Of a stretch of 64,000 bases of DNA, positions 7,380 to 59,382 are shown in pieces. The stretch comes from Bdellovibrionota bacterium (GTDB lineage Bacteria; Bdellovibrionota_C; UBA2361; OMII01): NCBI GenBank assembly GCA_044345405.1, contig JBIJBE010000006.1, positions 40,682 to 104,681 on the forward strand, in the 5' to 3' direction. The notes below the pieces were generated by a model. The model saw only the letters and a list, made by a program, of their open reading frames with translations, was not told where the DNA came from and made no database searches. The number at the start of each line of letters is the position of its first letter. Within the stretch, counting starts at the first letter, position 1. The translations under genes were made by a program, and so were the position numbers.

Positions 7380-7769
7380 TTAATTGAAGAGTGCCGGATA
7401 CAGCAACTTGAATCGCGGTATCTGCACGGTGACAAAATCCGCTTCACCTCTCTTGAAGAGATAGCTACCTTGCATCGCTCCGATCGGATCTTTGATAACG
7501 GTGCTGCTCGTGTACTCAAATCGCTCCCCCGGCCTGAGAACGGGTTGAACGCCAACAACACCGGCGCCATTGACCTCGCCGGTTTGCTCGCCCGCGGATT
7601 CGATGATCCAGTGCCGCTCAAGAAGTTGCACGGTATCGCCGGATTGATTCTCAATCGCCACGTTGTAGGCGAAAACAAAGACGCCCTCAGCGGGGCGGGT
7701 CTCTTCAAAGATAGGTGCCGGCTCAACCGTCACCGTGATGCTTGCGGTTGTCTCAGTGAAGGTGCTCAT
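7380..7769 (-). CDS. apaG: ApaG protein
   Basis: FAYNVAIEN, QLLERHWII, GVVGVQP, FEYTS, MQGSY; ATG at 7769. Confidence 0.93.
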   Translation of the reverse strand: MSTFTETTASITVTVEPAPIFEETRPAEGVFVFAYNVAIENQSGDTVQLLERHWIIESAGEQTGEVNGAGVVGVQPVLRPGERFEYTSSTVIKDPIGAMQGSYLFKRGEADFVTVQIPRFKLLYPALFN

Positions 7770-7844
7770 ACGTTTAATGCTAACTAAGTAACGGTGCGCT
7801 GAAAAGGGTGTCACGTTCTGGATGCTGGATTAAGGCCACGTTCC

Positions 7845-8843
7845 ATGATACCTGACCCTAGGCGCATGAAACTTCCCCTCCACACCACTATTGCCCCCTT
7901 ACGTCCCTATCATGGGGCTGTAAAGGGTCATGAGGTGGTGAACGAGTGCCGGAAGGTGTGGAGCCTTATGATGAGGTCGCCACACTGGAACGGGATCCGA
8001 AAGTCACTTTCGACTCTCCTGAGCGACACAAACCTCTCTGGAACCGACATAAACCTCCATGCCGACGCTATCTCGGCGACGTTACCCCCCGGCCTAGAGT
8101 ACGAGGGACTGAAAGATATCTGTCGGTCCCTCATTTCGTGGCGAACGGGTCCCTATCAGCTAGGGGAGTTCGCGCTCGATACGGAGTGGCGTTCGCACAT
8201 GAAGTGGCGGCGAGTATCCCCTATGATCCCGCAACGCTCGGGGATGCGGATCGCCGATGTCGGATGCAGCAACGGCTACTTTCTCTATAAGCTCTCGACG
8301 TTACATCCAGAGATAGCCATCGGCTTTGATCCGGTCGAGCGCTGTTGGCTCCAATTCGCGTTGCTTCAGTCAATTCTGCGCGTCCCGAACCTGGCGTTCC
8401 TACCGATGGGGATCCTCGGGCTCGACGCTTTCCCGGAATTCTTCGATTTCATCTTGTGCATGGGGGTTATCTATCATCAACGTGATCAAGCGCTCGCAGT
8501 CAGGAAACTCTACGACGCGACACGACCCGGCGGACACGTGCTTCTTGAAAGCCTTGTGGTGCCTGGCGATGAGCCACTCACTATTACGCCACCCGATCGG
8601 TACGCGAAGATGCGCAATGCGTGGACGATGCCCTCAGCCGCGTCACTCAAAACTCTTTTCCTAAACGCTGGATTTCAAGATGTCCGCGTTGAATCGTTCG
8701 GCCCCTTAACCACCTTTGAGCAACGACGTACTGAGCTTGCGCCATTTGAGAGTTTGTCCGACTTCCTTGACCCGAACGATCCTTCACGCACCGTTGAGGG
8801 ACATCCCGCCCCGCATACAGCCGCGGTTATCGGACGAAAGTAG
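7845..8843 (+). CDS. cmoB: tRNA U34 carboxymethyltransferase CmoB
   Basis: WRTGPY, DTEWRS, DVGCSNGY, MGVIYH, RYAKMRN, EQRRT. Confidence 0.9.
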   Translation: MIPDPRRMKLPLHTTIAPLRPYHGAVKGHEVVNECRKVWSLMMRSPHWNGIRKSLSTLLSDTNLSGTDINLHADAISATLPPGLEYEGLKDICRSLISWRTGPYQLGEFALDTEWRSHMKWRRVSPMIPQRSGMRIADVGCSNGYFLYKLSTLHPEIAIGFDPVERCWLQFALLQSILRVPNLAFLPMGILGLDAFPEFFDFILCMGVIYHQRDQALAVRKLYDATRPGGHVLLESLVVPGDEPLTITPPDRYAKMRNAWTMPSAASLKTLFLNAGFQDVRVESFGPLTTFEQRRTELAPFESLSDFLDPNDPSRTVEGHPAPHTAAVIGRK

Positions 8844-8854
8844 GCTCGTAAAAC

Positions 8855-9739
8855 TTAGTACTCAGCGCCGATCAGAAGCTCCTCGATACTCACATCGAGC
8901 GCCTTCGCCAACTTTGAGATCGCGCCGATGCTGATGTTTTGCTTTCCGTGCTCCACCGCGCTGATGTAGGCACGGTCAAGGTCTGAGTTAGTCGCAAGCT
9001 CCTGCTGGCTGAAACCTCGTAGCTTTCGATACTCGTGAACGGAGTGACCGAGCTTTCGCAAGAAGAGTCCGAGCGAGTTCTCAGCGTTTAAGAGACCACA
9101 CACCTGCCGCGCCGAGATCACCGCCGTCTGTGGGTCAGCTGCGAACGCGTCGGCTTTAACCTGTTCGGCGAGGTCGGGATTCATGATAAACGTCGCGCCA
9201 CCAACGATAACTTTCGGAGCCGGATTGAGCTTCTTCAATTCCTGAACTAACTTCGCCGCCACCGGAACGAGTCCGGTCAGGGAGCACGACACACACACAA
9301 GGTGCGCACCGCGAGCTTTCGAAAACGGTACGAGATGATCCGTTGGTACGTCAGCACCGAGGAAGTCGACCTCCCATCCATCCACCGAGAGAAAATCCGC
9401 GACAGCTTGGGCCCCGATAAAATGTTGGTCACCCTCAACGGAGCTAACCACCGCTTTGAGACCGAGCTTTAGCCGGGTCTTTAAGAGACCCTTGAGGCGG
9501 GTCATCTGTCGTAAGGTAATCTGCGTGGCGATGTGTTCTTGCGGTATAGAGATCTCTCCTCTGTGCCAGCGGGCGCCTAGCTCTACCTGCACGGGCATAA
9601 GGACGTCGAGGTACAGCTTTGAGGGAATGACTCCACTGGCGAGGCCCTGGTCCAGAACCTTGTGCGCTTCATCCGCATTACCGTCTAAAACGGCCGTAGC
9701 GTATGCGCTCCTCAGCTTGGTAAGTATGTCTGTGACCAC
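8855..9739 (-). CDS. Cobalamin-binding domain protein with C-terminal XRE helix-turn-helix
   Basis: W-x9-EH (WHRGEISIPQEH), DQHFIG, LGADVP, VIVGG; C-terminal SQQELA...YISAVEHGKQNIS. Confidence 0.85.
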   Translation of the reverse strand: MVTDILTKLRSAYATAVLDGNADEAHKVLDQGLASGVIPSKLYLDVLMPVQVELGARWHRGEISIPQEHIATQITLRQMTRLKGLLKTRLKLGLKAVVSSVEGDQHFIGAQAVADFLSVDGWEVDFLGADVPTDHLVPFSKARGAHLVCVSCSLTGLVPVAAKLVQELKKLNPAPKVIVGGATFIMNPDLAEQVKADAFAADPQTAVISARQVCGLLNAENSLGLFLRKLGHSVHEYRKLRGFSQQELATNSDLDRAYISAVEHGKQNISIGAISKLAKALDVSIEELLIGAEY

Positions 9740-9914
9740 AAAACCACCTCGTGTATTTGTTATATACCAAATTATGGTAGCAGATGCTGAATAAAGACAC
9801 CAGCAGAGGTCGCTGGATTGAGTAAATAGAACAGTTTGTGGTGACGATCAAAAAGCCACGCTGTTTCAATATGTTAAATCACCGAACTCCTGGGACCAGA
9901 CATAACCCTAGGGT

Positions 9915-10892
9915 ATGAGTTCGCTGCGAGACCACTTCCAAACACTGGGGCTAACGGAAAACGCCTCCCTTGATGACGCACTCGCGTCGTACAAGGACCT
10001 CGTGCGGGTGTGGCATCCGGACCGCTTCGGTCACGACGCTCGGTTAAGAAAGAAGGCCGAGGAGCAAACGAGTCGAATCAACGTGGCGATGGCTCAGGTA
10101 CGGGAGTTCTTTAAAAATCCATCTGCGTATCGCCGTCAAAACGAGCCACAAGCGACCCATCGTTCCGCGCCGCCGACCAGCGCCCCTCCCGTAGCACCGT
10201 CGCTTGGAAAGGCGCTCGCTGTTCACCAGCGGAGAGGCGTTTCCTTGGCTCATATCGCGTTCGGCCTCCTCGTTCTTCAGCTCGGATGGTGGATGTCTAT
10301 TGAACACCCTGGAACCGCCGGACAGATTGCGCTCGGCGTGGTGATGTGCGGCTACGGCTTCTCCTCCGCGCTTTTCGCGCTCACAATCCTATGCTTCCGA
10401 AGACCTGTCATTTCCCTGACAAATAGCTCGATCGGGATACTCGGCAGACCAAGGATTCGCATCGACGAGATAGCGGCATCGCACTTGGTGGTTACAACAA
10501 AAGGCTCCGTTTTTACTCTGCAAGCATCACCCCGTTACCTGAAGAGAACCCCGCTTCCGCTCAGATTGTGGCTTCAAGGACTTCTTCTCGCTCGGCGTAG
10601 TCACTACGAGGTGAAAGCGACCGCTCTTGATACGCACCCGGCGGTTATCCTCGACACCTTAGACCTCATAACCGCTCGAGGTGTCGCACCATCGCCAGCC
10701 CCATCTCCGCACGTGGCCGCCTGGGGATACTACGCCTTCGCGTTTTCTATCGTGACCTTGGCAGTGCCGGTCATCCGTCTCTTTATGGAGGGGCCGTTAC
10801 CGCCGACAGCTGTCCTCCCGTACCTGGCCCTCTTTGCCATATTACAGACGAGCTCGGTCATTAAAACGGTCGTTCTAGCGCCAACTCGATAA
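9915..10892 (+). CDS. J-domain membrane protein
   Basis: N-terminal J domain with WHPD; several TM segments. Confidence 0.8.
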   Translation: MSSLRDHFQTLGLTENASLDDALASYKDLVRVWHPDRFGHDARLRKKAEEQTSRINVAMAQVREFFKNPSAYRRQNEPQATHRSAPPTSAPPVAPSLGKALAVHQRRGVSLAHIAFGLLVLQLGWWMSIEHPGTAGQIALGVVMCGYGFSSALFALTILCFRRPVISLTNSSIGILGRPRIRIDEIAASHLVVTTKGSVFTLQASPRYLKRTPLPLRLWLQGLLLARRSHYEVKATALDTHPAVILDTLDLITARGVAPSPAPSPHVAAWGYYAFAFSIVTLAVPVIRLFMEGPLPPTAVLPYLALFAILQTSSVIKTVVLAPTR

Positions 10893-11025
10893 CCCGAGCC
10901 ACCGATTGAAACCTTGGGTAAGACTCGCTATAAATGAGAAAAAGGCACCGTGAGGTGTCTCTTTTGCGGACCGATTCCGGGCTCTCAAGCGTCTAGTAGA
11001 GAGAGACCCAGTTCTTGGTTCTTGG

Positions 11026-11101
11026 GCCGCCCTAGCTCAGTTGGTAGAGCACTTCATTCGTAATGAAGGGGTCGCGTGTTCGATTCACGTGGGCGGCTCC
11101 A
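11026..11101 (+). tRNA. tRNA-Thr(CGT)
   Basis: GCCGCCC/GGGCGGC acceptor stem, D arm AGCTCAGTTGGTAGAGC, anticodon arm CTTCA-TTCGTAA-TGAAG, TTCGA T loop, encoded CCA; 76 nt. Confidence 0.97.
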
Positions 11102-11234
11102 ATCTTCGCTTCCTTCGGAAGCTTCGGCTGGCGGGCCGTCTTCCCTCCTCCACATAGCCTCTCAGGTATCCAACGCTCTCAAATCCCAGACTTCACTAGT
11201 CTCTAATAGTCGTCTTCTAGAGGAATCATTATCA

Positions 11235-12539
11235 ATGGCAACCCCACAGTCATTTGATAAGGGGGCCGAACTTGATACCCTCCATCGGTCTGCTACCAAC
11301 TCTGATGCTACCCATATGAGCCGACTTGCTTCTCCCCCCATCACTTCCCTTGCGACACTGAGTTTCGACGAGCGCGTCGGCAATGCCCTGCAATCACACA
11401 TTCAAGAGGGAGATCCTCTCGGCGGTCGGTACCCTCGTGGTGCGTCCTACCTGCTTCCAAAGTCGGGCGATGGCGGAGAGACGCAAGATTATGGTCGGCA
11501 AGGTCACGAAGGGGGAAAGCACGTTGAAAATGTTTTAAGAGCGGCTGAACTTGGGGAGCATTGCTACGCCTTTTCTGATGGCATGCGCGCAATCGCCGCG
11601 GCTACAACGGCAGCAACTAAGCTGGCAGGAGGTGATCGACCAACCGTGTTGCTTCACCGTTCTGTATATGGAGGAACGCATCGTTTCTTTTCCGAAGAAC
11701 ATCAAGAGAAACACATCTCGTTAGAAAGCATCGACCTTACCGACCCAAACGTTGGTGAAGAGATTCGTCGCAGAAAGCCAACACTAATCGTCGGCGAACC
11801 GGTCACAAATCCCTTGCTTGATGTAGTGGACCTCAAACCAGCTATGGAAGCCGCCCGAGACATCGGCGCGACCATGATCCTCGACAACACCCTCACAACT
11901 GGACGCGCATGTATTCCCCTGCAAATCGCGAGGGAGGTTGGCTTCGACAAACTTTTGAATGTACTGAGCCTCACCAAAGCCTACACAGCGGGCACGCTGA
12001 GCGGCGCGGTTCTCACCGATAATCCAGATCTAGCTAAGCTGCTCTTCGAGGATCGTCGCCGAAAGGGCGGCGCACTTCCGGCAGACAGCGCTGCCTCTGT
12101 TATCGACGGATTCAAGTCCATGGACGTCCGTTTAGAAAGAATGACGCAAACAACGATGGTGGTTCTGGAACACCTTTCAAATAACCCTGTGGATGGTGTC
12201 GAGATATTGCATCCATTTGTGGCGAAAGGGAGGCAACGTGAACTCGCGAATCGTTACCTTGTTGGCTGCCCAGCCGTATTCACTCTCAGGTGTCATCTAC
12301 CCGAGGAACGTTATCAGAACCTACTTGAAGCACTCTCCGGCGTTTTTCTCAGAGCCAATAGTTTCAACGGGCATTATCCGATGATGAGCGAGTCCTCAAC
12401 TCAATCTCATGCGAGCGTGAAGGATGCTCAAGCTAAGAAGGATGCGGGCGTGGAAGCAGGTATCATTCGCCTATCAGGGGGATCGGTCTTCGCTCCACAG
12501 ACGATACTTAACAAGGTAAAGAGCATCTTCCGGGCTTAG
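11235..12539 (+). CDS. Divergent PLP-dependent Cys/Met metabolism (transsulfuration) family enzyme
   Basis: YGR, FSDGMRAI, VYGGT, EPVTNP, LDNT, SLTK (PLP lysine), IRLS; track start 11076 lies inside the tRNA, so ATG 11235 chosen. Confidence 0.8.
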   Translation: MATPQSFDKGAELDTLHRSATNSDATHMSRLASPPITSLATLSFDERVGNALQSHIQEGDPLGGRYPRGASYLLPKSGDGGETQDYGRQGHEGGKHVENVLRAAELGEHCYAFSDGMRAIAAATTAATKLAGGDRPTVLLHRSVYGGTHRFFSEEHQEKHISLESIDLTDPNVGEEIRRRKPTLIVGEPVTNPLLDVVDLKPAMEAARDIGATMILDNTLTTGRACIPLQIAREVGFDKLLNVLSLTKAYTAGTLSGAVLTDNPDLAKLLFEDRRRKGGALPADSAASVIDGFKSMDVRLERMTQTTMVVLEHLSNNPVDGVEILHPFVAKGRQRELANRYLVGCPAVFTLRCHLPEERYQNLLEALSGVFLRANSFNGHYPMMSESSTQSHASVKDAQAKKDAGVEAGIIRLSGGSVFAPQTILNKVKSIFRA

Positions 12540-47969: not shown

Positions 47970-48536
47970 ATGAATTCCCCTGTTACCAAAAAGAAGCTTT
48001 TCATCAGCAACCTTGATTTCGAAGTGACCAGCGAGCAACTCTCGCAGCTCTTCGAAGAGATCGGCGCAACGGTTAGCGTTGTGGTCGCTTCGGATCGTGA
48101 GACCAAGCGTTCAAAGGGTTTCGCGTTCGTTGAAATGGAGCGTGAAGAGGATGCTCGTACTGCAATCGAGACCCTCAACAACCGCGCTGTTAACGGCCGT
48201 CCAATGAAGGTGTGTGAAGACCGCGGTAAGAACGCTGGTCCAGCATCATCTGAGGGCGGTTCAAGCGAGGGTGGCCGTAAGTTTGAGCCACTTCCTTCGA
48301 TCCAGAGAATGCAACTCTTCAAGCGTCGTCGTAAGCTTGATCCCTTCACTGAGGATCCTCGCAAGTCGATCGACTACAAGGACGTCGCAATGCTCTCGAA
48401 GTTCGTCAGCGAGCGTGGTCGTATCCTCTCTCGTCGTTTGACCGGACTTACCGCGTACAATCAGCGGAAGGTTTCTAAGGCTATCAAGCGCGCTCAGAGC
48501 CTTGGTCTTATGGCCTTCACGTCGATCCAAGAGTAG
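47970..48536 (+). CDS. rpsR: RRM domain fused to 30S ribosomal protein S18
   Basis: RNP2 LFISNL, RNP1 KGFAFVEM; C-terminal IDYKDVAMLSKFVSERGRILSRRLTG...QRKVSKAIKRAQSLGLM. Confidence 0.92.
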   Translation: MNSPVTKKKLFISNLDFEVTSEQLSQLFEEIGATVSVVVASDRETKRSKGFAFVEMEREEDARTAIETLNNRAVNGRPMKVCEDRGKNAGPASSEGGSSEGGRKFEPLPSIQRMQLFKRRRKLDPFTEDPRKSIDYKDVAMLSKFVSERGRILSRRLTGLTAYNQRKVSKAIKRAQSLGLMAFTSIQE

Positions 48537-52993: not shown

Positions 52994-54610
52994 CTACTTC
53001 TGCCCGTTCGATTTGCACCACTTGTCGAAATCAGGGAAACCTCGATGCTCAAGGAGCCGTTGCTCAACACCGTGCTCAACCGCCTCTATGAATCTCTGTG
53101 GAGATATATGCGCCTTGAGTTTAGCGAGCGCGGCCTCGACATCAGAGCGCAATCCAGCCACCTCTTCCTCAGCGACCTCGGTCTTTAGCTTGTCCAGCGC
53201 CGCTTTTCTCTCAAGAAGATAACTGACCTCAGCGTCGATCTGCGAGCCTTTGCTCTTTATAACGCGCTGTGGAGCGTCTCCGTTGCGAGGCCCAAGGTTG
53301 AGCTCGTTCTGCGCTCGAGACCCGACAGCGACCTTGTCATTCGGCAGCACGAACTCAAAGGGCCTCTCAACGGCGCGATACAGAAATCCCTGCGGATTAC
53401 GACTGACCAGATGACTCCCACCACTCACCAGCTTGTCGAAATGCGCCACAATCGCCTCAATACGCTCAAGGGCCTCTATTCCCCTACCCTCTACCAAACG
53501 TCGAGCCTGCTTATCGGCGATTCCACGTTGTATGAGGAGGCGTTCCAGCGAGTCCTCTTTAGAATCCCCGTGGCCTTGCGCGGTCGCTTGAGCGGCCGCG
53601 ATACGGGGCCCTGCGGGCTCCTGCGCGAGAGATTGAGTACCGGTTGACGGCGGTGGGTCAACCGCTACCTTTCGCGGCGCGTGAGCGGCGACGAGAACAA
53701 CATCAGTTGCCTTGCCCTTTCCGACAAATTCGAACTCACTCAGCAGCCCTTTGTCTCGCAACTCCTCAAGGGCTGGCTCTAGTTGTTGCCGAAGGGAGCT
53801 CGCGTACACGTAGTTGCGGGAGATACCGATCTTTTCGTGGGCAAGCACGAAGAGATTGACCTGCATGCGGGAGCGATACCAAAAGTGCTTATCGAGATAG
53901 CGGTAGAGTCGCTTTGAGACCGCGCTCTGAAGGTCAAGGTAGAATTCGAGGTCCAGTTTTTTGATGAAACCAACTTGGAACGATTTGAAGAGTACCTCAC
54001 TCCACGTAAAGAAGCTCGGTCTCGTATCTCGACCATCGTTGATCTCATAGGCATCAAGGATTCCGAAGTTGCGCGTGCTGTGCAGTTTCGACTCGTTGTC
54101 GTAAAAGGCGTTCGTGGCTTTGATTCGCACGCCGCTCAAACGATCGAGGGCGTTCTGAAGCCGAACGTAGCTTCGTCCCTCTGTGGTCCACCGCAAAATG
54201 CGCAAGAGTTCATACCTGGTGAAGTGAACTTTGGGGCTTCGGAGTCCGTCGTCCGCAGTGAGCTTGAGAAGTCCCAACAAAACCTCATCATCAGACGAGG
54301 TCGGAAGACCGAACTTGTCCGCCCCGGTGATGATCCACTTCCGATTGATGACGTCGCCATTCTTGCCTTTGACGGTGTCACTAAATTCGAGTGTTTTGAT
54401 CGAGGGATCGGCCCGTTTCGAGAGAACTGTGAGCGGGAACTCGGCGAGATTCATCTCGTCCCGTGATATCTTCACCGGCAAGGGCCGCACCGGCGTCGCG
54501 ACATTTGGCGAAACAGGAACCGCTGAGGATTCAGCGTCAGAGAGATCGTGGGCCACGATCTCGTCGAGTGCTGTCGTTGATGTCAATGCTGAGGAATCAG
54601 TCATGCTCAC
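52994..54610 (-). CDS. repA: Plasmid-type replication initiator protein (RPA/RepA family)
   Basis: SRDEMNLAEFP, GLPT, FTRYELLRILRW, YVRLQNALDRL, KRLYRYLDKHF; divergent from parAB. Confidence 0.8.
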   Translation of the reverse strand: MSMTDSSALTSTTALDEIVAHDLSDAESSAVPVSPNVATPVRPLPVKISRDEMNLAEFPLTVLSKRADPSIKTLEFSDTVKGKNGDVINRKWIITGADKFGLPTSSDDEVLLGLLKLTADDGLRSPKVHFTRYELLRILRWTTEGRSYVRLQNALDRLSGVRIKATNAFYDNESKLHSTRNFGILDAYEINDGRDTRPSFFTWSEVLFKSFQVGFIKKLDLEFYLDLQSAVSKRLYRYLDKHFWYRSRMQVNLFVLAHEKIGISRNYVYASSLRQQLEPALEELRDKGLLSEFEFVGKGKATDVVLVAAHAPRKVAVDPPPSTGTQSLAQEPAGPRIAAAQATAQGHGDSKEDSLERLLIQRGIADKQARRLVEGRGIEALERIEAIVAHFDKLVSGGSHLVSRNPQGFLYRAVERPFEFVLPNDKVAVGSRAQNELNLGPRNGDAPQRVIKSKGSQIDAEVSYLLERKAALDKLKTEVAEEEVAGLRSDVEAALAKLKAHISPQRFIEAVEHGVEQRLLEHRGFPDFDKWCKSNGQK

Positions 54611-54779
54611 TTGGGTAGTCGGTATGCGCTATTCGCGCTCGTTCTCGTTTGCGTTCGTGCTTCGTATCAATGGAGCTATCGTACGTGTGTTCCCTGATAG
54701 TTCCAAAGAGTTTTTACGGGAATACGCTGCGCCGCTTCAGCAAAGAGTCCCTGAAAAACTGCGTGAAGACATACCAGAA

Positions 54780-55065
54780 AAAAATCCAAACACCAAAGCT
54801 TAGTTTTAGTTAGTTAAACAATCGTTAGTACGGAACATGTTATTAGATGAGCGGCGTAAAAATACAGGAAGTACGATAGATTAGCTTGTCTTTTTTATCT
54901 CCACGCACGATGCTTTAATGGTCAATTCCCGATACTCATTTATCTAGTTTCCCGATCACTTTTCTTTCGTTTCACGACGCTTTTGTGTCCGAGTCACGAA
55001 CCTCTTGTGTTCAAGTCACGAGCAACCTATCTCAGTTCACGATTGTCCTTACGTGAGATCACGAA
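54780..55065. other. Putative iteron-type replication origin
   Basis: AT-rich tract ~54780-54900, then C(A/C)CGA cores at 54906, 54928, 54951, 54973, 54995, 55017, 55038, 55060 (21-23 bp spacing). Confidence 0.7.
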
Positions 55066-55082
55066 TGGAGGGAGCCTCGCCT

Positions 55083-55123
55083 CCGTGGAACACCGTGGAA
55101 CGGTGTGGAACATCGTGGAACAC
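55083..55123. repeat. Four tandem 10-bp repeats containing GTGGAAC
   Basis: ccgtggaaca ccgtggaacg gtgtggaaca tcgtggaaca. Confidence 0.8.
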
Positions 55124-55150
55124 TCCTAGGGCTCGTGTGTTGAGGTAAAT

Positions 55151-55313
55151 ATCGTGAATCGAGATCTAAAAACCGATCCCATTTCTTACTTCGATTCACG
55201 AAACACGACGTCTCAAGGAGCCCGGAGATTTCCCCAGATTTCTTCATCGTGAATTGACTTAAGTATGGATTTTATGAGCGATCTTTGCCAGATTCCTTAT
55301 GTCGATTCACGAA
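55151..55313. promoter_or_regulatory. Four TCRATTCACGAW motifs in alternating orientation upstream of parA
   Basis: 55151-55162 (rc), 55191-55202, 55246-55257 (rc), 55302-55313. Confidence 0.65.
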
Positions 55314-55327
55314 TGTGGAGGTAGCCT

Positions 55328-56122
55328 GTGGCGATCGCAATTAGCGTAGTAAACCAGAAGGGTGGCGTTGGAAAAACGACCACGACCGTTAACCTTGGAG
55401 CTGCGTTAGCGGCTAAGGGAAAGCGGGTTTTATTGATAGATATTGATGCTCAGAGCAATCTTACAACTCACCTTGGATTAGGTGTAAAGGAAGATGTTGA
55501 GGACCTTAATGAGATAGCTCAGGGACCTGAGTGGACGATCTACGATGTTCTTAAGGGGACGAAGAAGATTCATGACGTTATTATTAAGCGCTCAGAGAAT
55601 CTTGCGGTGGTGCCGTCGAGCCTTCTTTTGAGTGCCGCGGATCTTGAGTTGGGAGGTGTCGTTGGACGAGAGCTCCTTCTCAAGCGAGCTATCGAGAAGG
55701 TCCGTTCAGAGTATGACGTGATTCTGATCGATTGTCCTCCAACGCTCGGACTTCTCTCTTTGAACGCGTTGGCCGCTGTCGATAAGGTGATCGTTCCGGT
55801 TCAAAGTGAGTACCTCGCGCTTCATGGAGTTCGTCAGCTGCTTGATACCATCGACCAAGTTCGTAATGTGTACAATCCGAACCTCGTCGTAGGAGGGGTT
55901 CTTATTTGTCTTCACGATAGCCGGAAGAAATTGGCGCGGGCCGTTGCTGAGACGATACGCGCGTATTTTGGACAGCTCGTGTTCACAACCATTATTCGTG
56001 AAAACGTTGCTCTCGCTGAGGCACCTGCAAAGGGTCAGACGATCCTTGAGTACATGCCTAAGTCGTCGGGAGCCGAGGATTATATTGCGTTAGCTGAGGA
56101 GGTTCTTAATGTCAAAGCGTAG
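55328..56122 (+). CDS. parA: ParA/Soj partition ATPase
   Basis: NQKGGVGKTTT, DIDAQSN, IDCPPTLG, EAP; GGAGG RBS. Confidence 0.96.
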   Translation: MAIAISVVNQKGGVGKTTTTVNLGAALAAKGKRVLLIDIDAQSNLTTHLGLGVKEDVEDLNEIAQGPEWTIYDVLKGTKKIHDVIIKRSENLAVVPSSLLLSAADLELGGVVGRELLLKRAIEKVRSEYDVILIDCPPTLGLLSLNALAAVDKVIVPVQSEYLALHGVRQLLDTIDQVRNVYNPNLVVGGVLICLHDSRKKLARAVAETIRAYFGQLVFTTIIRENVALAEAPAKGQTILEYMPKSSGAEDYIALAEEVLNVKA

Positions 56123-56981
56123 TTTTTCGTTTGCTAATAATCCATTGATGGCAGGACCAGCTCTTGAGGAGCGGTCGAGAGGAGGGATTCCTTACCGAGA
56201 GATTCCCGTCTCCGCCATTGAGGCAGATCCAAATCAGCCGCGACGGACCTTTGATGAGGAGAAGCTCCAGGAGCTTGCCGAGTCGATTAAGCTCTATGGT
56301 ATCTTGAGCCCAATCCTCGTGAGAGCCGGTGCTCTTCCTGGTCGATACACGATCATCTCCGGCGAGCGGCGCTATCGAGCTTCACAGATCGCTGGACTGG
56401 CTGCGATTCCAGCCATCGTGAGCCAGGGAGAAGGGGAGGATAGTCGGACTCTCGCGATTCAGCTCGTAGAGAACCTTCAGCGTGATGACCTCTCCTCCCT
56501 TGAGCGTGCGCAAGCTATCGGTGCTCTTCGGGATGGCCATAATCTCTCTATTCGAGATATCGCCGAGAAGCTGAGTATCTCTAAGAGTGCCGTACAGCGT
56601 AGTCTTGAGATCCTTTCGCTTCCAGATGACCTTCTGAACGCTCTTAGAGAGGGTGCTTCGGAGTCGAAGGTTCTTTTGGTTGCTAAGATAGAGGACCCGG
56701 CGGTTCGCGCTACCTATCTCAAGGACATCGACGTTCTTACTCGGGCGCAGATCGGTCAAAGCGTGGAGCAAAAACGTTCGGCTCCATCCCACGACACCGC
56801 TGAGTCAAAGGTAATCAATGCAGAGGACCAACGGATCGCTGAAGAGATTCAACGAGCGCTTGGAATGAAGGTTCGGATGGTTCGTTCAGGTCCTAATGCT
56901 GAAGGTGGGCGATTGACCATCGACTTTTACGGGGAAGGGGACCTTCAGATCCTCTTCCGTAAGCTTGTCTCGGAAGGGTAG
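56109..56981 (+). CDS. parB: ParB/Spo0J partition protein
   Basis: PNQPRRTF, GERRYRA, LVENLQRDDL, HTH. Confidence 0.96.
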   Translation: MSKRSFSFANNPLMAGPALEERSRGGIPYREIPVSAIEADPNQPRRTFDEEKLQELAESIKLYGILSPILVRAGALPGRYTIISGERRYRASQIAGLAAIPAIVSQGEGEDSRTLAIQLVENLQRDDLSSLERAQAIGALRDGHNLSIRDIAEKLSISKSAVQRSLEILSLPDDLLNALREGASESKVLLVAKIEDPAVRATYLKDIDVLTRAQIGQSVEQKRSAPSHDTAESKVINAEDQRIAEEIQRALGMKVRMVRSGPNAEGGRLTIDFYGEGDLQILFRKLVSEG

Positions 56982-56984
56982 CCT

Positions 56985-57066
56985 TGTCCCACCGTGGGAC
57001 AGTTCTTCTAATATCGTGATTTGACCATAAATAGGGGTGCGATTAGAAGCGTCCCACGGTGGGACA
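56985..57066. promoter_or_regulatory. Two parS-like palindromes
   Basis: TGTCCCAC-C-GTGGGACA at 56985-57001 and its reverse complement GTCCCAC-G-GTGGGACA at 57051-57066. Confidence 0.6.
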
Positions 57067-57067
57067 G

Positions 57068-58395
57068 TGAACAAGGCTCAGACCGGATTACATTACCTTA
57101 ATACGCTAACCCCCTGGAACGGCAGGGGGGGCTTCGCCCTCGAAGGCATCATCAAAGTTCTCAAGCGCCTCGGGCAGCCCCAAGATAGTTATCCAACAGT
57201 TCATATCGCAGGAACGAACGGAAAAGGCTCCGTTTCTTCTGCTGTGTCTTCAATCCTTGGGGCCGCGGGCTACAAGGTGGGATTGAACACCTCTCCACAT
57301 CTCCAAGTTCTCAATGAACGTATCGTTATTGATGGACTCCCTATAGAGGACCAACCGTTGGGCGAGTTTTGCTATGACGTTCGCGGTGCTGCCGCAAAGG
57401 AAATGGTTGAGTTGTCCTTTCACGAGGCTATTACCGCAGTAACCTTTCTCGCTTTGCGTGAGATGGCGGTAGATTGGGGGGTTATTGAGGTGGGTTTAGG
57501 AGGGCGGCTCGACGCCTCTAATGTCATTTCACGACCCGCAGCTACCGCTATCGTTACGATCGATTACGACCATCAAGCTATTCTTGGTAATACGTTGGGT
57601 GAGATAGCTGGGGAGAAAGCCGGTATTATTAAGCAGGGAAGCCCACTCATATCGGGGCTTTTGCCACCTGAGGCGGAAAAAGTGGTGAATGCGAAGGCTC
57701 GAGTAACGAAGCACTATCGATACATGACGGATTATGGAGTTTCCCCTGTACCGTCAGGAACCCAGAACACATTCGGGTATTGGGGTAAGGATTTCCCAAT
57801 TACACCTATGCTCTCCTTCGATTTCACCTCGCCACTGCCGGGTATACATCAGGGACACAACCTCAGTGTGGCAGCCACAATCGGTCTTGCTATCGGAATG
57901 AGCCCTGATGTTGTGAAGACCGGAATAGAAGGGGTGTATTGGCCAGCTCGTTTGGAGAGCCTCTCCGTCGATGGGTGTTCACTACTTATGGATTGCGCCC
58001 ATAACCAAGCGGGGATACGAGCGTTTATTGATTATCTCGTGCGCCGCCAGATTGGTTTGATAGACCTGACGTTTGGTGTTTTGGATACCAAGAACTGGCG
58101 AGAGATGATCGGTATGCTCGCACCACATGTGGGTCACTGGAGATTGATAAAGCCGGACTCAGAGCGGGCGCTTCCTCTTGAGCAGGTTCAAGCGGAGATT
58201 AGAGTATCGGGTAATGACGTAAGAATATCTTCCTACGGCAGTGACTACGAGGAGCTCGTCAGGGAGATGATACGGTCATCTGAAGGGGAGATTCGATACG
58301 TCACCGGCTCGATGTACATGATTGGAAAATTGCGGAGCGTCCTAGGGGTCCCAATTAAACCCATATGGAACGCTGGTAATAAAACGCCGGTTTGA
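57068..58395 (+). CDS. folC: Dihydrofolate/folylpolyglutamate synthase (start approximate)
   Basis: HIAGTNGKGS, TSPHL, EVGLGGRLDASN, EKAGIIK, WPARLE, DCAHN. Confidence 0.93.
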
Positions 58396-58563
58396 GAGAG
58401 TTGTATTGCCGGCACCCACGATCCTAATGGTTCGTGCCGCAGTTTGCGCACTGTTTTTCCATGAATCGACTTTGCATGGCGGGGATGATCAACTAGCCTT
58501 CGGACGGCGGTCAGGGTTACTTTTCCTGCCACTGGCGTTCTATCACTAGTAACTGCGAGCTTT

Positions 58564-59382
58564 TTGATGTCGAACTCTGTAGCTGTAGCGACGGTACTCA
58601 CCGAGTGGCGGGAGCTCGTGTACCGCGAACTGGTCTCGCTCGGAGAGAGTTCGGCCGGTGATAGTAAGAACCTTCAAGCGGCGACGACCTATGTCCTCCA
58701 GGGACAGGGAAAACGGCTTCGAGCACTGCTGCCCATGGCGCTCAGTCGTGACCTTGGCGTGGAATCGTTGGCCTCGACTCCCCCAGCGTTGCGTCCAGGA
58801 ATCGCGCTTGAAATGCTGCACGCCGCGTCCCTTGTTCATGACGATCTACCCGCGTTGGATAACGATGACATGAGACGTGGTCGACCCTCGTGTCACCGAC
58901 AATTCAATGAAGCCACCGCGATCCTTACCGGAGATTTCCTAGTGGGGCGGGCATTCTGTGTTGTTGCGGATGGAGCGCTTCCGCCGACGCAGCGATTGCG
59001 AGTACTTGGGGTGTTAGCGCGCGCGTGGAGTGACCTCTGTATCGGGCAGCAGGTTGATATCGATCGTCCCACACAGCCGAGGGACATTCACCGCTTGATG
59101 GAGCTTAAAACAGGAGCGCTTTTTGGCGCCGCAGCCGCTTGTGGCGCCATTTGCGCAGATCGTGACGACGCGATGACCGATCGATTTTACGCCTGGGGCA
59201 TGAAAGTAGGCGTTCTTTTCCAGAGACTTGATGATCTCGCCGATGGAGATGGAGCCGCTGGAGTTGTGTGGGACAAGGAGCGCGAGATACGCGATCTACT
59301 TGTGGAGCTGCGCTCCCTCGACCTTCGTTCTCTTCCGCACGCGGAGGGGGTGTATCGTATGATTGTTGGTGAGCAAGTGTAA
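58564..59382 (+). CDS. ispA: Polyprenyl diphosphate synthase (IspA-like)
   Basis: GKRLR, SLVHDDLPALDNDDMRRG, KTGALF, FQRLDD. Confidence 0.88.
   Translation: MMSNSVAVATVLTEWRELVYRELVSLGESSAGDSKNLQAATTYVLQGQGKRLRALLPMALSRDLGVESLASTPPALRPGIALEMLHAASLVHDDLPALDNDDMRRGRPSCHRQFNEATAILTGDFLVGRAFCVVADGALPPTQRLRVLGVLARAWSDLCIGQQVDIDRPTQPRDIHRLMELKTGALFGAAAACGAICADRDDAMTDRFYAWGMKVGVLFQRLDDLADGDGAAGVVWDKEREIRDLLVELRSLDLRSLPHAEGVYRMIVGEQV

Follow-up and report, generated by a model that had tools for sequence, protein, structure and literature searches.

A candidate replication origin for a second chromosome

We analysed a 64,000 nt stretch of bacterial DNA (the window), which spans positions 40682-104681 of contig C45 in a 3.59 Mb genome assembly of 85 contigs (termed G000; the window is G000:C45:40682-104681). 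Within this stretch, a gene for a plasmid-type replication initiator (rep) is transcribed divergently from a parA-parB gene pair, and the spacer between them carries an AT-rich block and an array of phased direct repeats (iterons). This locus is very probably ori2, where a second chromosome (chromid) that depends on Rep begins its replication and has its partition genes. This chromid would exist beside a DnaA-oriC chromosome and be inherited vertically throughout the lineage. The lineage is labelled Bdellovibrionota at NCBI and constitutes a separate phylum in the genome library used for this study. Records of related genomes are titled as metagenome-assembled 'Bdellovibrionota', 'Oligoflexia' or 'Deltaproteobacteria' bacteria, and these were recovered mostly from lakes and rivers.

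The cassette was initially described in a sequence-only reading of the window, and its anatomical observations hold. Pfam searches and open reading frame (ORF) coordinates confirm an RPA-family rep gene divergent from parA-parB, and the AT-rich tract and the eight core motifs phased at 21-23 bp are present between rep and parA. The par genes lead straight into folC (57037-58395) and a polyprenyl/farnesyl diphosphate (FPP) synthase gene (58564-59382), as described for folC-ispA. A scan of the 62 ORFs of the window at E ≤ 1e-8 likewise revealed no integrase, no conjugation gene and neither dnaA nor dnaN. The genes mentioned as neighbours (trpS, an S18 domain, ung, rsgA, ahcY and tRNA-Thr) are all found in the window. 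The features of the locus are as follows.

52994-54610, minus strand: rep, replication initiator of 538 aa (Pfam RPA and TrfA matches, AF2 model, fold searches)
54611-54789, no strand: rep leader and presumed rep promoter region (sequence read; no element recognised)
54790-54893, no strand: AT-rich block, presumed DNA-unwinding element (TTAGTT-type repeats and a conserved 12-mer)
54894-55064, plus strand: eight direct iterons, 17 bp bipartite units (T-rich 5′ block plus (T/G)C(A/C)CGA core, phase 21-23 bp)
55084-55123, plus strand: four (C/T)GTGGAAC direct repeats with exact 10 bp spacing (half of the genome's parS palindrome)
55140-55327, no strand: parA promoter region with four iteron-like sites of the TCGATTCACGA type, alternating in orientation (comparison of genus spacers)
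55328-56122, plus strand: parA2, Walker-type partition ATPase of 264 aa (Pfam AAA_31, E 3.5e-60, and CbiA; NCBIfam ParA_partition)
56109-56981, plus strand: parB2, chromosomal-type ParB of 290 aa (Pfam ParB_N, E 4e-29, and HTH_ParB)
57037-59382, plus strand: folC and an ispA-like FPP synthase gene, joined to the par operon (NCBIfam folC, 307 bits; FPPsyn)

Phased iterons lie at a fixed distance from an AT-rich block

The 717 bp spacer between rep and parA is composed of the AT-rich block, the eight iterons, four half-parS repeats and four further iteron-like sites. Iteron origins are recognised by at least three phased direct repeats of 17-22 bp beside a rep gene and by an AT-rich flank. Here the iteron cores start on the plus strand at 54905, 54927, 54950, 54972, 54994, 55016, 55037 and 55059, giving successive intervals of 22, 23, 22, 22, 22, 21 and 22 bp, and the GC content falls to 0.32-0.42 across positions 54760-54970 compared with about 0.54 for the contig. 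Exact copies of TCACGA on both strands are concentrated at the locus, with nine inside the 341 bp from 54972 to 55312 versus 64 across the other ~63.7 kb. The window total of 73 is greater than that of every one of 100 shuffled sequences (mean 46.6).

This arrangement is widely conserved. We extracted rep-parA spacers from 79 related loci, of which 73 were usable, with identities of the associated Rep proteins extending down to 44%. A genus set of 24 spacers includes that of the window itself. TCACGA is the most frequent hexamer in most of the 24, and most of them also carry chains of six to eight cores with the interval pattern 22, 23, 22, 22, 22. A logo made from 150 sites in these spacers reveals a 17 bp unit in which the T-rich block and the CACGA core are about one helical turn apart, a geometry that fits the binding of one winged-helix pair per repeat. 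Among all 73 spacers, phased chains of at least three cores are present in 49 and chains of at least four in 33, while shuffled spacers reach two at most. The 12-mer AGTTAGTTAAAC, located at 54808-54819 in the AT-rich block, recurs with two or fewer mismatches in 59 of the 73, mostly 97-98 bp ahead of the first iteron core.

The spacer also contains four iteron-like sites that the sequence-only reading had overlooked, at 55152 (−), 55196 (+), 55247 (−) and 55307 (+). The sites at 55247 and 55307, along with their flanks, are near-invariant across the genus spacers compared. An Rfam scan of the window returned tRNA alone and identified no known regulatory RNA at the locus.

Rep resembles iteron-binding initiators

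Rep belongs to the RPA family (Pfam PF10134) with a score of 60.4 bits against a cut-off of 27 over residues 50-259, and it also matches Pfam TrfA weakly yet above the cut-off (24.9 bits versus 22). A genome-wide search found a single copy of this RPA-type rep gene. An AF2 model was built from an alignment of 26 homologues, leaving out row L098, which has a stop codon; its mean pLDDT is 71. In this model, residues ~69-312 form two confidently folded winged-helix domains, which is the tandem arrangement (WH1-WH2) of iteron-type initiators.

Foldseek ranked RctB domains 2-3 first among matches to the model (E 6.4e-7), followed by pi with iteron DNA, RepE, pPS10 RepA complexes and TrfA. VIA-align, which is independent of Foldseek, gave Z scores of 10.5 for RctB (225 residues), 9.8 for pi and 9.2 for RepE, with other chains at 7.1 or lower. 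Because RctB, pi and RepE top both structure searches above all other chains, the predicted structure of Rep is assigned to the two-winged-helix fold of iteron-binding initiators. A sequence search of the PDB with a Rep profile yielded no match at E ≤ 0.01.

The C-terminal half of Rep contains two further conserved and confidently modelled helical domains, at residues 350-427 and 454-535 (residues 350-538 correspond to window positions 52997-53563). No recognised fold was found for the C-terminal 190 residues, which resemble only designed helical proteins and helical domains of viruses (Z ~6-7). Near the other end of the protein, an invariant SRDEMNLAEFPL motif occupies residues 49-60 (window 54433-54466) within the poorly predicted residues 1-65. 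Both this motif and the C-terminal helical domains are candidates for binding a partner such as a helicase, chaperone or clamp, or for copy control.

A strand-asymmetry switch at the locus, and a DnaA chromosome elsewhere

The sequence-only reading proposed cumulative GC skew as a check on origin function. The skew of C45 has its minimum at 94,448, equivalent to window position 53,767, and changes there from negative to positive, no more than about 1.5 kb from the iterons. Mean (G−C) per base is −0.017 to the left of this minimum and +0.036 to the right.

That reading had also offered the alternative that Rep fires the main chromosome instead of DnaA-oriC. The dnaA gene is located at C5:2959-4575, and ~2 kb from it is the densest DnaA-box cluster of the genome, which has eight sites within ~240 bp (C5:6425-6700). 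A second partition operon (parAB1) and six parS sites are located on contig C3. An ordinary DnaA-oriC-ParABS chromosome therefore exists, and we rejected the replacement of DnaA by Rep. The DnaA-box cluster is not directly upstream of dnaA and is found beyond two genes that, judged by eye, resemble those for ATP synthase F0 subunits; a few more DnaA boxes occur in the dnaA-dnaN spacer.

Two relatives with larger contigs show how the two origins are distributed. The genome G041 consists of three contigs. Its contig C2 (1,866,914 bp) carries Rep at 587 kb, and 27 samples of 20 kb each reveal a negative skew at 93-550 kb, a positive one at 620-1,514 kb and a return to negative values from 1,541 kb. 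These sign changes place the terminus ~0.93 Mb, or half a circle, from Rep. Contig C1 (3,256,849 bp) has its skew switch at dnaA (2.067 Mb), with the terminus between 0.42 and 0.80 Mb.

The genome G037 belongs to the same order as the window genome and is assembled in five contigs. Its skew flips within 2 kb of Rep (C3:692 kb), with a terminus-like flip near 36-45 kb. On contig C2 (1,252,138 bp), which carries dnaA at 599 kb, the skew is below zero between 40 and 600 kb and above zero over the rest of the contig from ~606 kb, and the remaining contigs each have uniform polarity. These data fit a genome of two replicons if the three leftover contigs are assigned to the Rep one, which would then seem to be the larger half (about 1.39 versus 1.25 Mb). 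The share of the Rep replicon in the genome is 36% in G041 and may exceed half in G037. Thus Rep and dnaA occupy separate large contigs in both relatives, each contig with a skew origin and terminus of its own. C45 would by analogy belong to a separate replicon in G000.

Rep and its neighbours are conserved across the lineage

Rep is present in 40 of 41 relatives drawn. We extended the search to a phylum sample of 96 genomes that are at least 85% complete, all of one class and from at least 35 families. Rep was detected in 92 of these, including all 73 that are of high quality; the four genomes in which it was missed are 85-87% complete. DnaA was detected in 91. The two proteins never share a contig in the 89 genomes that have both, which include assemblies of only 3 to 20 contigs. 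Bit scores of Rep and DnaA to the G000 queries are correlated (Spearman 0.84), a value that is descriptive since related genomes are not independent.

Gene order is likewise retained. The parA gene is divergent from rep in all 70 related loci with enough flanking sequence. Synteny of repA-parAB-folC, another check that had been suggested, is borne out by 49 of 56 related loci in which folC directly follows parB, and ispA follows in 52 of the 56. A ParB gene adjoins Rep in 10 of 10 genomes checked, although in one of them (G031) only 55 aa of it are left. The second ParB is encoded on the dnaA contig in all six genomes in which both lie on one contig. Taken together, the breadth of Rep, the lack of contigs shared by Rep and DnaA, the score correlation and the paired par systems indicate that a two-replicon genome has been passed on vertically.

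These distributions bear on the possibility that the cassette came in recently, as a mobile element or as the remnant of an integrated plasmid, with a skew turn that reflects local gene orientation. The gene strand does switch at the locus, and the nearest plasmid-borne Reps, on planctomycete plasmids, are 32-38% identical to Rep, which suggests that the initiator ultimately derives from plasmid stock. However, a recent arrival is hard to reconcile with a gene that keeps the same neighbours over such a taxonomic range, whose divergence follows that of DnaA, whose contig matches the host in GC content and which has no integrase or conjugation gene among the 62 ORFs scanned around it. Moreover, the skew polarity holds for hundreds of kilobases to either side in G037 and G041. 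We consider this explanation extremely improbable.

Another possibility is that a plasmid or chromid fused with the dnaA chromosome of G000, leaving the Rep-iteron-parAB2 locus there as an additional origin, whether active or silent. Replicon fusions occur in multipartite bacteria, and the fragmented state of the G000 assembly leaves room for one. Furthermore, the relative G031 (1.9 Mb, 30% GC) carries what would be expected as the trace of a recent fusion. In its decayed locus (L190, G031:C17:340001-360000, at about 7750-11600), no frame of the broken rep, parA and parB2 genes exceeds 174 aa, the nearby ispA aligns whole and the skew still flips. The state of G031 suggests a recent loss of the system, perhaps after replicon fusion, although the broken frames could be a local assembly error instead. 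In G000, by contrast, rep, parA and parB2 are intact and highly conserved. The large contigs of G041 each have one skew origin, one terminus and ends of like sign, such that joining them would require extra origins. The proposal of the sequence-only reading that a Rep origin acts in addition to DnaA on one molecule is improbable for the fragmented G000, being disfavoured by the consistent separation of the two genes among the 89 genomes. We judge fusion in G000 improbable, and a separate Rep-dependent replicon remains the preferred reading.

A stronger statement can be made about the lineage as a whole. By this statement, a phylum-rank group of at least 35 families has had two chromosomes since its common ancestor, one fired by DnaA and one by a Rep of RPA/TrfA-like type whose rate of evolution is about as low as that of DnaA, with the origin geometry (unwinding block, 97 bp gap and 22 bp-phased iterons) held fixed. 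We regard the case for this stronger statement as evenly balanced. If it is true, and if the Rep replicon is the larger half in at least one member (G037), no bipartite genome known in bacteria would be deeper-rooted or more evenly split.

Candidate partition sites

The products of parA2 and parB2 have the domains of a ParABS system, and its cognate site could be sought either among the iteron-like sites or in the four half-parS repeats. ParB2 is 34% identical to the other ParB of the genome, encoded on C3. The GTGGAAC repeats at 55085-55121 in the spacer each equal one half of the 16 bp parS palindrome TGTTCCACGTGGAACA, and all six full palindromes (TGTTCCACGTGGAACA plus one-mismatch variants) flank parAB1 on C3. 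The half-site array escaped notice in the sequence-only reading. Four of the 11 GTGGAAC sites of the window fall inside the 40 bp of this array, and of 23 genus loci only 5, those of the closest relatives, have it. We also considered whether these repeats are DnaA boxes, but one copy alone is within two mismatches of such a box and all four fit half-parS better. The array may be a contact point of the chromosome 1 ParB with ori2, or it may form part of the ParB2 site. In the former case, the chromosome 1 ParB may touch the origin of chromosome 2 through the four half-sites and thereby couple the cycles of both replicons.

The phased repeats themselves might, wholly or additionally, be the centromere of ParAB2, with ParB2 binding TTCACGA-type sites for both segregation and par autoregulation. 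A search of the genome for a second family of parS-like palindromes found none, as the sole multi-copy palindrome of this kind (14-16 bp) is that on C3 beside parAB1, so the site of ParB2 is otherwise unaccounted for. The best conserved of all the sites are the four iteron-like ones, which overlap the parA promoter region. The iteron core presumably also has the hexamer TTCACG in common with the canonical parS half-site. There is precedent in Deinococcus radiodurans, where the available text of one report describes 18 bp repeats upstream of parAB that are bound by the cognate ParB and that have both origin and parS-like function (PMC7671480).

On the other hand, a 17 bp unit with two blocks one turn apart and a 22 bp phase has the geometry of a winged-helix initiator, unlike the 8 bp half-site of a helix-turn-helix ParB, and the fixed distance between the array and the AT-rich block suits origin opening. 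Origin and centromere roles are also compatible with each other. We therefore view a centromere as a less likely, though serious, explanation of the repeats, and an origin bound by Rep as the preferred one.

Core genes and composition of the Rep contig

Chromids are reportedly defined, in criteria attributed to Harrison et al. in 2010, by plasmid-type replication and partition, chromosome-like composition, core genes and existence as a separate replicon. An RPA-type Rep with ParA and ParB provides the first of these attributes. Regarding composition, the GC content of C45 is 0.543 compared with 0.533 for C5 (dnaA) and 0.52-0.57 for most other contigs, and samples of G041 range from 0.54 to 0.57 on C2 and from 0.54 to 0.58 on C1. 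Three G000 contigs depart from this range: C16, C42 and C81 have GC contents of 0.59-0.62 and skews of +0.27, −0.23 and −0.17, versus about 0.55 and ±0.07 elsewhere. These contigs may consist of giant repetitive genes or of foreign DNA, or may have been mis-binned.

Regarding core genes, C45 carries the only trpS gene of G000 and its only folC gene above the cut-off, and the replicon is therefore indispensable in G000. The trpS gene is single-copy in all five genomes tested, and G000 and G032 have it on the Rep contig. The sole folC above the cut-off is beside parAB2 in G000, G037 and G032. The suggestion that the locus marks a chromid rich in essential genes is thus supported by these two genes together with the skew switch, the conserved synteny and iterons, and the separate contig with its own terminus in relatives. 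Further genes in the window include rsgA, ung, ahcY, rsfS, fliG, flagellin genes, a class I aldolase gene and one encoding an S18 domain. The last is part of a 188-aa frame (47970-48536, plus strand) with an RRM-like domain (residues 10-85) ahead of ribosomal protein S18 (117-184), representing either a fusion or two genes read through.

Observations that weigh against a second chromosome

Several findings count against our interpretation or limit its scope. In the spacer itself, a consensus scan detected no sigma-70-like promoter, and no canonical DnaA box was found there with one mismatch or fewer. The division of G000 into 85 contigs means that we infer, and do not read directly, to which molecules C45 (rep) and C5 (dnaA) belong. 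The skew of G000 contains too many within-contig switches for replicons to be counted from it, since five are terminus-like (C12, C20, C25, C51 and C85) and C52 and C81 have odd switches that look like origins. Counting replicons from the skew of G000 itself was indecisive given this excess of terminus-like switches in short contigs. A search of G000 termini for dif-like sites, using the E. coli dif consensus with up to eight mismatches, gave one poor match, and short-word BLAST among four of the terminus-like regions gave only chance matches of 14-20 bp.

The relatives also have limits. Their skew was sampled, with 540 kb of 1,867 kb covered for G041:C2. The first and last 20 kb of G041:C2 do not overlap, a neutral result for the presumed circularity of the relatives' contigs. 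Loss of Rep is apparently possible, as in G031. The gene content of the two replicons is not fixed either, since the dnaA contig holds trpS in both G037 and G041 and also holds folC in G041, where it is contig 1. The location of trpS and folC on different replicons in different lineages implies that essential genes have moved between replicons over time.

A model for origin function

On the basis of these features, we propose that Rep monomers would load on the eight 17 bp iterons along one face of the DNA, as the 22 bp phase corresponds to two helical turns. The resulting nucleoprotein complex would melt the conserved AT-rich block 97 bp away, where the host helicase would be loaded. A replisome running bidirectionally from this point would generate the skew switch. 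The four iteron-like sites at the parA promoter would tie Rep or ParB2 to par expression and probably to copy control, and ParA2 and ParB2 would segregate the copies of the replicon. Both the assignment of Rep as the repeat-binding protein and the position of melting are predictions of this model.

Significance

Multipartite genomes are found in about a tenth of sequenced bacteria. To our knowledge, the cases studied are nearly all from Pseudomonadota, Deinococcus, Leptospira and a few Bacteroidota, and are conserved at genus-to-family depth. In the literature collection searched, we found no publication on multipartite genomes or chromids in Bdellovibrionota or Oligoflexia lineages. The available text of a 2026 survey of large extrachromosomal replicons, which left out metagenome-assembled genomes, makes no mention of these groups (PMC13342612).

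The locus suggests that every member of a deep uncultured lineage, known from metagenomes only, has a second chromosome driven by Rep, and it would extend the phylogenetic range and age of the chromid solution. For work on the domestication of plasmid initiators, it also supplies a new and highly conserved initiator-iteron pair, whose Rep is of the RPA/TrfA class and has two additional domains without a recognised fold. A practical caution is that binning and completeness estimates for these genomes count two replicons as one.

Comparison with known replication systems

A close functional parallel is chromosome 2 of Vibrio cholerae, with its initiator RctB, ori2 iterons and parAB2. It is likewise large, essential and lineage-wide, has its own parAB beside the origin and is fired by a plasmid-derived initiator acting on phased repeats, although such binding is a prediction for the locus described here. 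RctB also resembles Rep in having extra domains beyond two winged helices, and its domains 2-3 are the best structural match. However, the two proteins have no sequence relationship: of the four domains of RctB, these two alone align structurally, at 13-14% identity, which argues against placing Rep in the RctB family, and Pfam assigns Rep to RPA/TrfA. The repeats bound by RctB are shorter and methylated, compared with 17 bp iterons at a 22 bp phase here. Conservation of Vibrio chromosome 2 extends over a family, whereas that of the present system extends over a whole phylum-rank group of the genome library.

The origin also has features in common with that of plasmid RK2/RP4, whose initiator TrfA gives the above-mentioned weak Pfam match and whose TrfA-DNA structure is among the fold matches (22% identity). 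As at this locus, an AT-rich region in RK2 oriV is flanked by 17 bp iterons spaced by about 22 bp. In contrast, RK2 is a small, broad-host-range conjugative plasmid with DnaA boxes in its origin. Rep is twice the length of TrfA, and its conserved C-terminal domains are of no recognised fold.

Direct-repeat arrays upstream of parAB on secondary replicons are also known from D. radiodurans, with unrelated repeat sequences. In the text available to us, cisII of chromosome II and cisMP of the megaplasmid comprise 11 and 8 direct repeats of 18 bp just upstream of parAB and have both origin and centromere-like function (PMC7671480). That text names DnaA and ParB as binders and reports that no initiator gene was found (PMC7671480), in contrast to the conserved rep that adjoins the repeats here. 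The RPA family does have matches in the D. radiodurans control genome, and Reps of Deinococcus and Thermus megaplasmids in PLSDB are 22-25% identical to Rep.

The closest plasmid-borne proteins in PLSDB, at the 32-38% identity given above, are annotated 'Replication initiator protein A' and come from Isosphaeraceae (Planctomycetota). This similarity covers residues ~50-415, including the winged-helix half and the first C-terminal domain, and ends before the last ~120 residues of Rep. The Isosphaeraceae proteins are encoded on plasmids of 25-130 kb, whereas Rep appears to drive a megabase-sized replicon with core genes.

Judged from sequence, this is a known kind of system that would work in outline like Vibrio chromosome 2 and other chromids, with an initiator of the RPA/TrfA class that falls outside the RctB family. 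It is distinguished from these precedents by the depth of its conservation, the size of its replicon and the fixed geometry of its origin.

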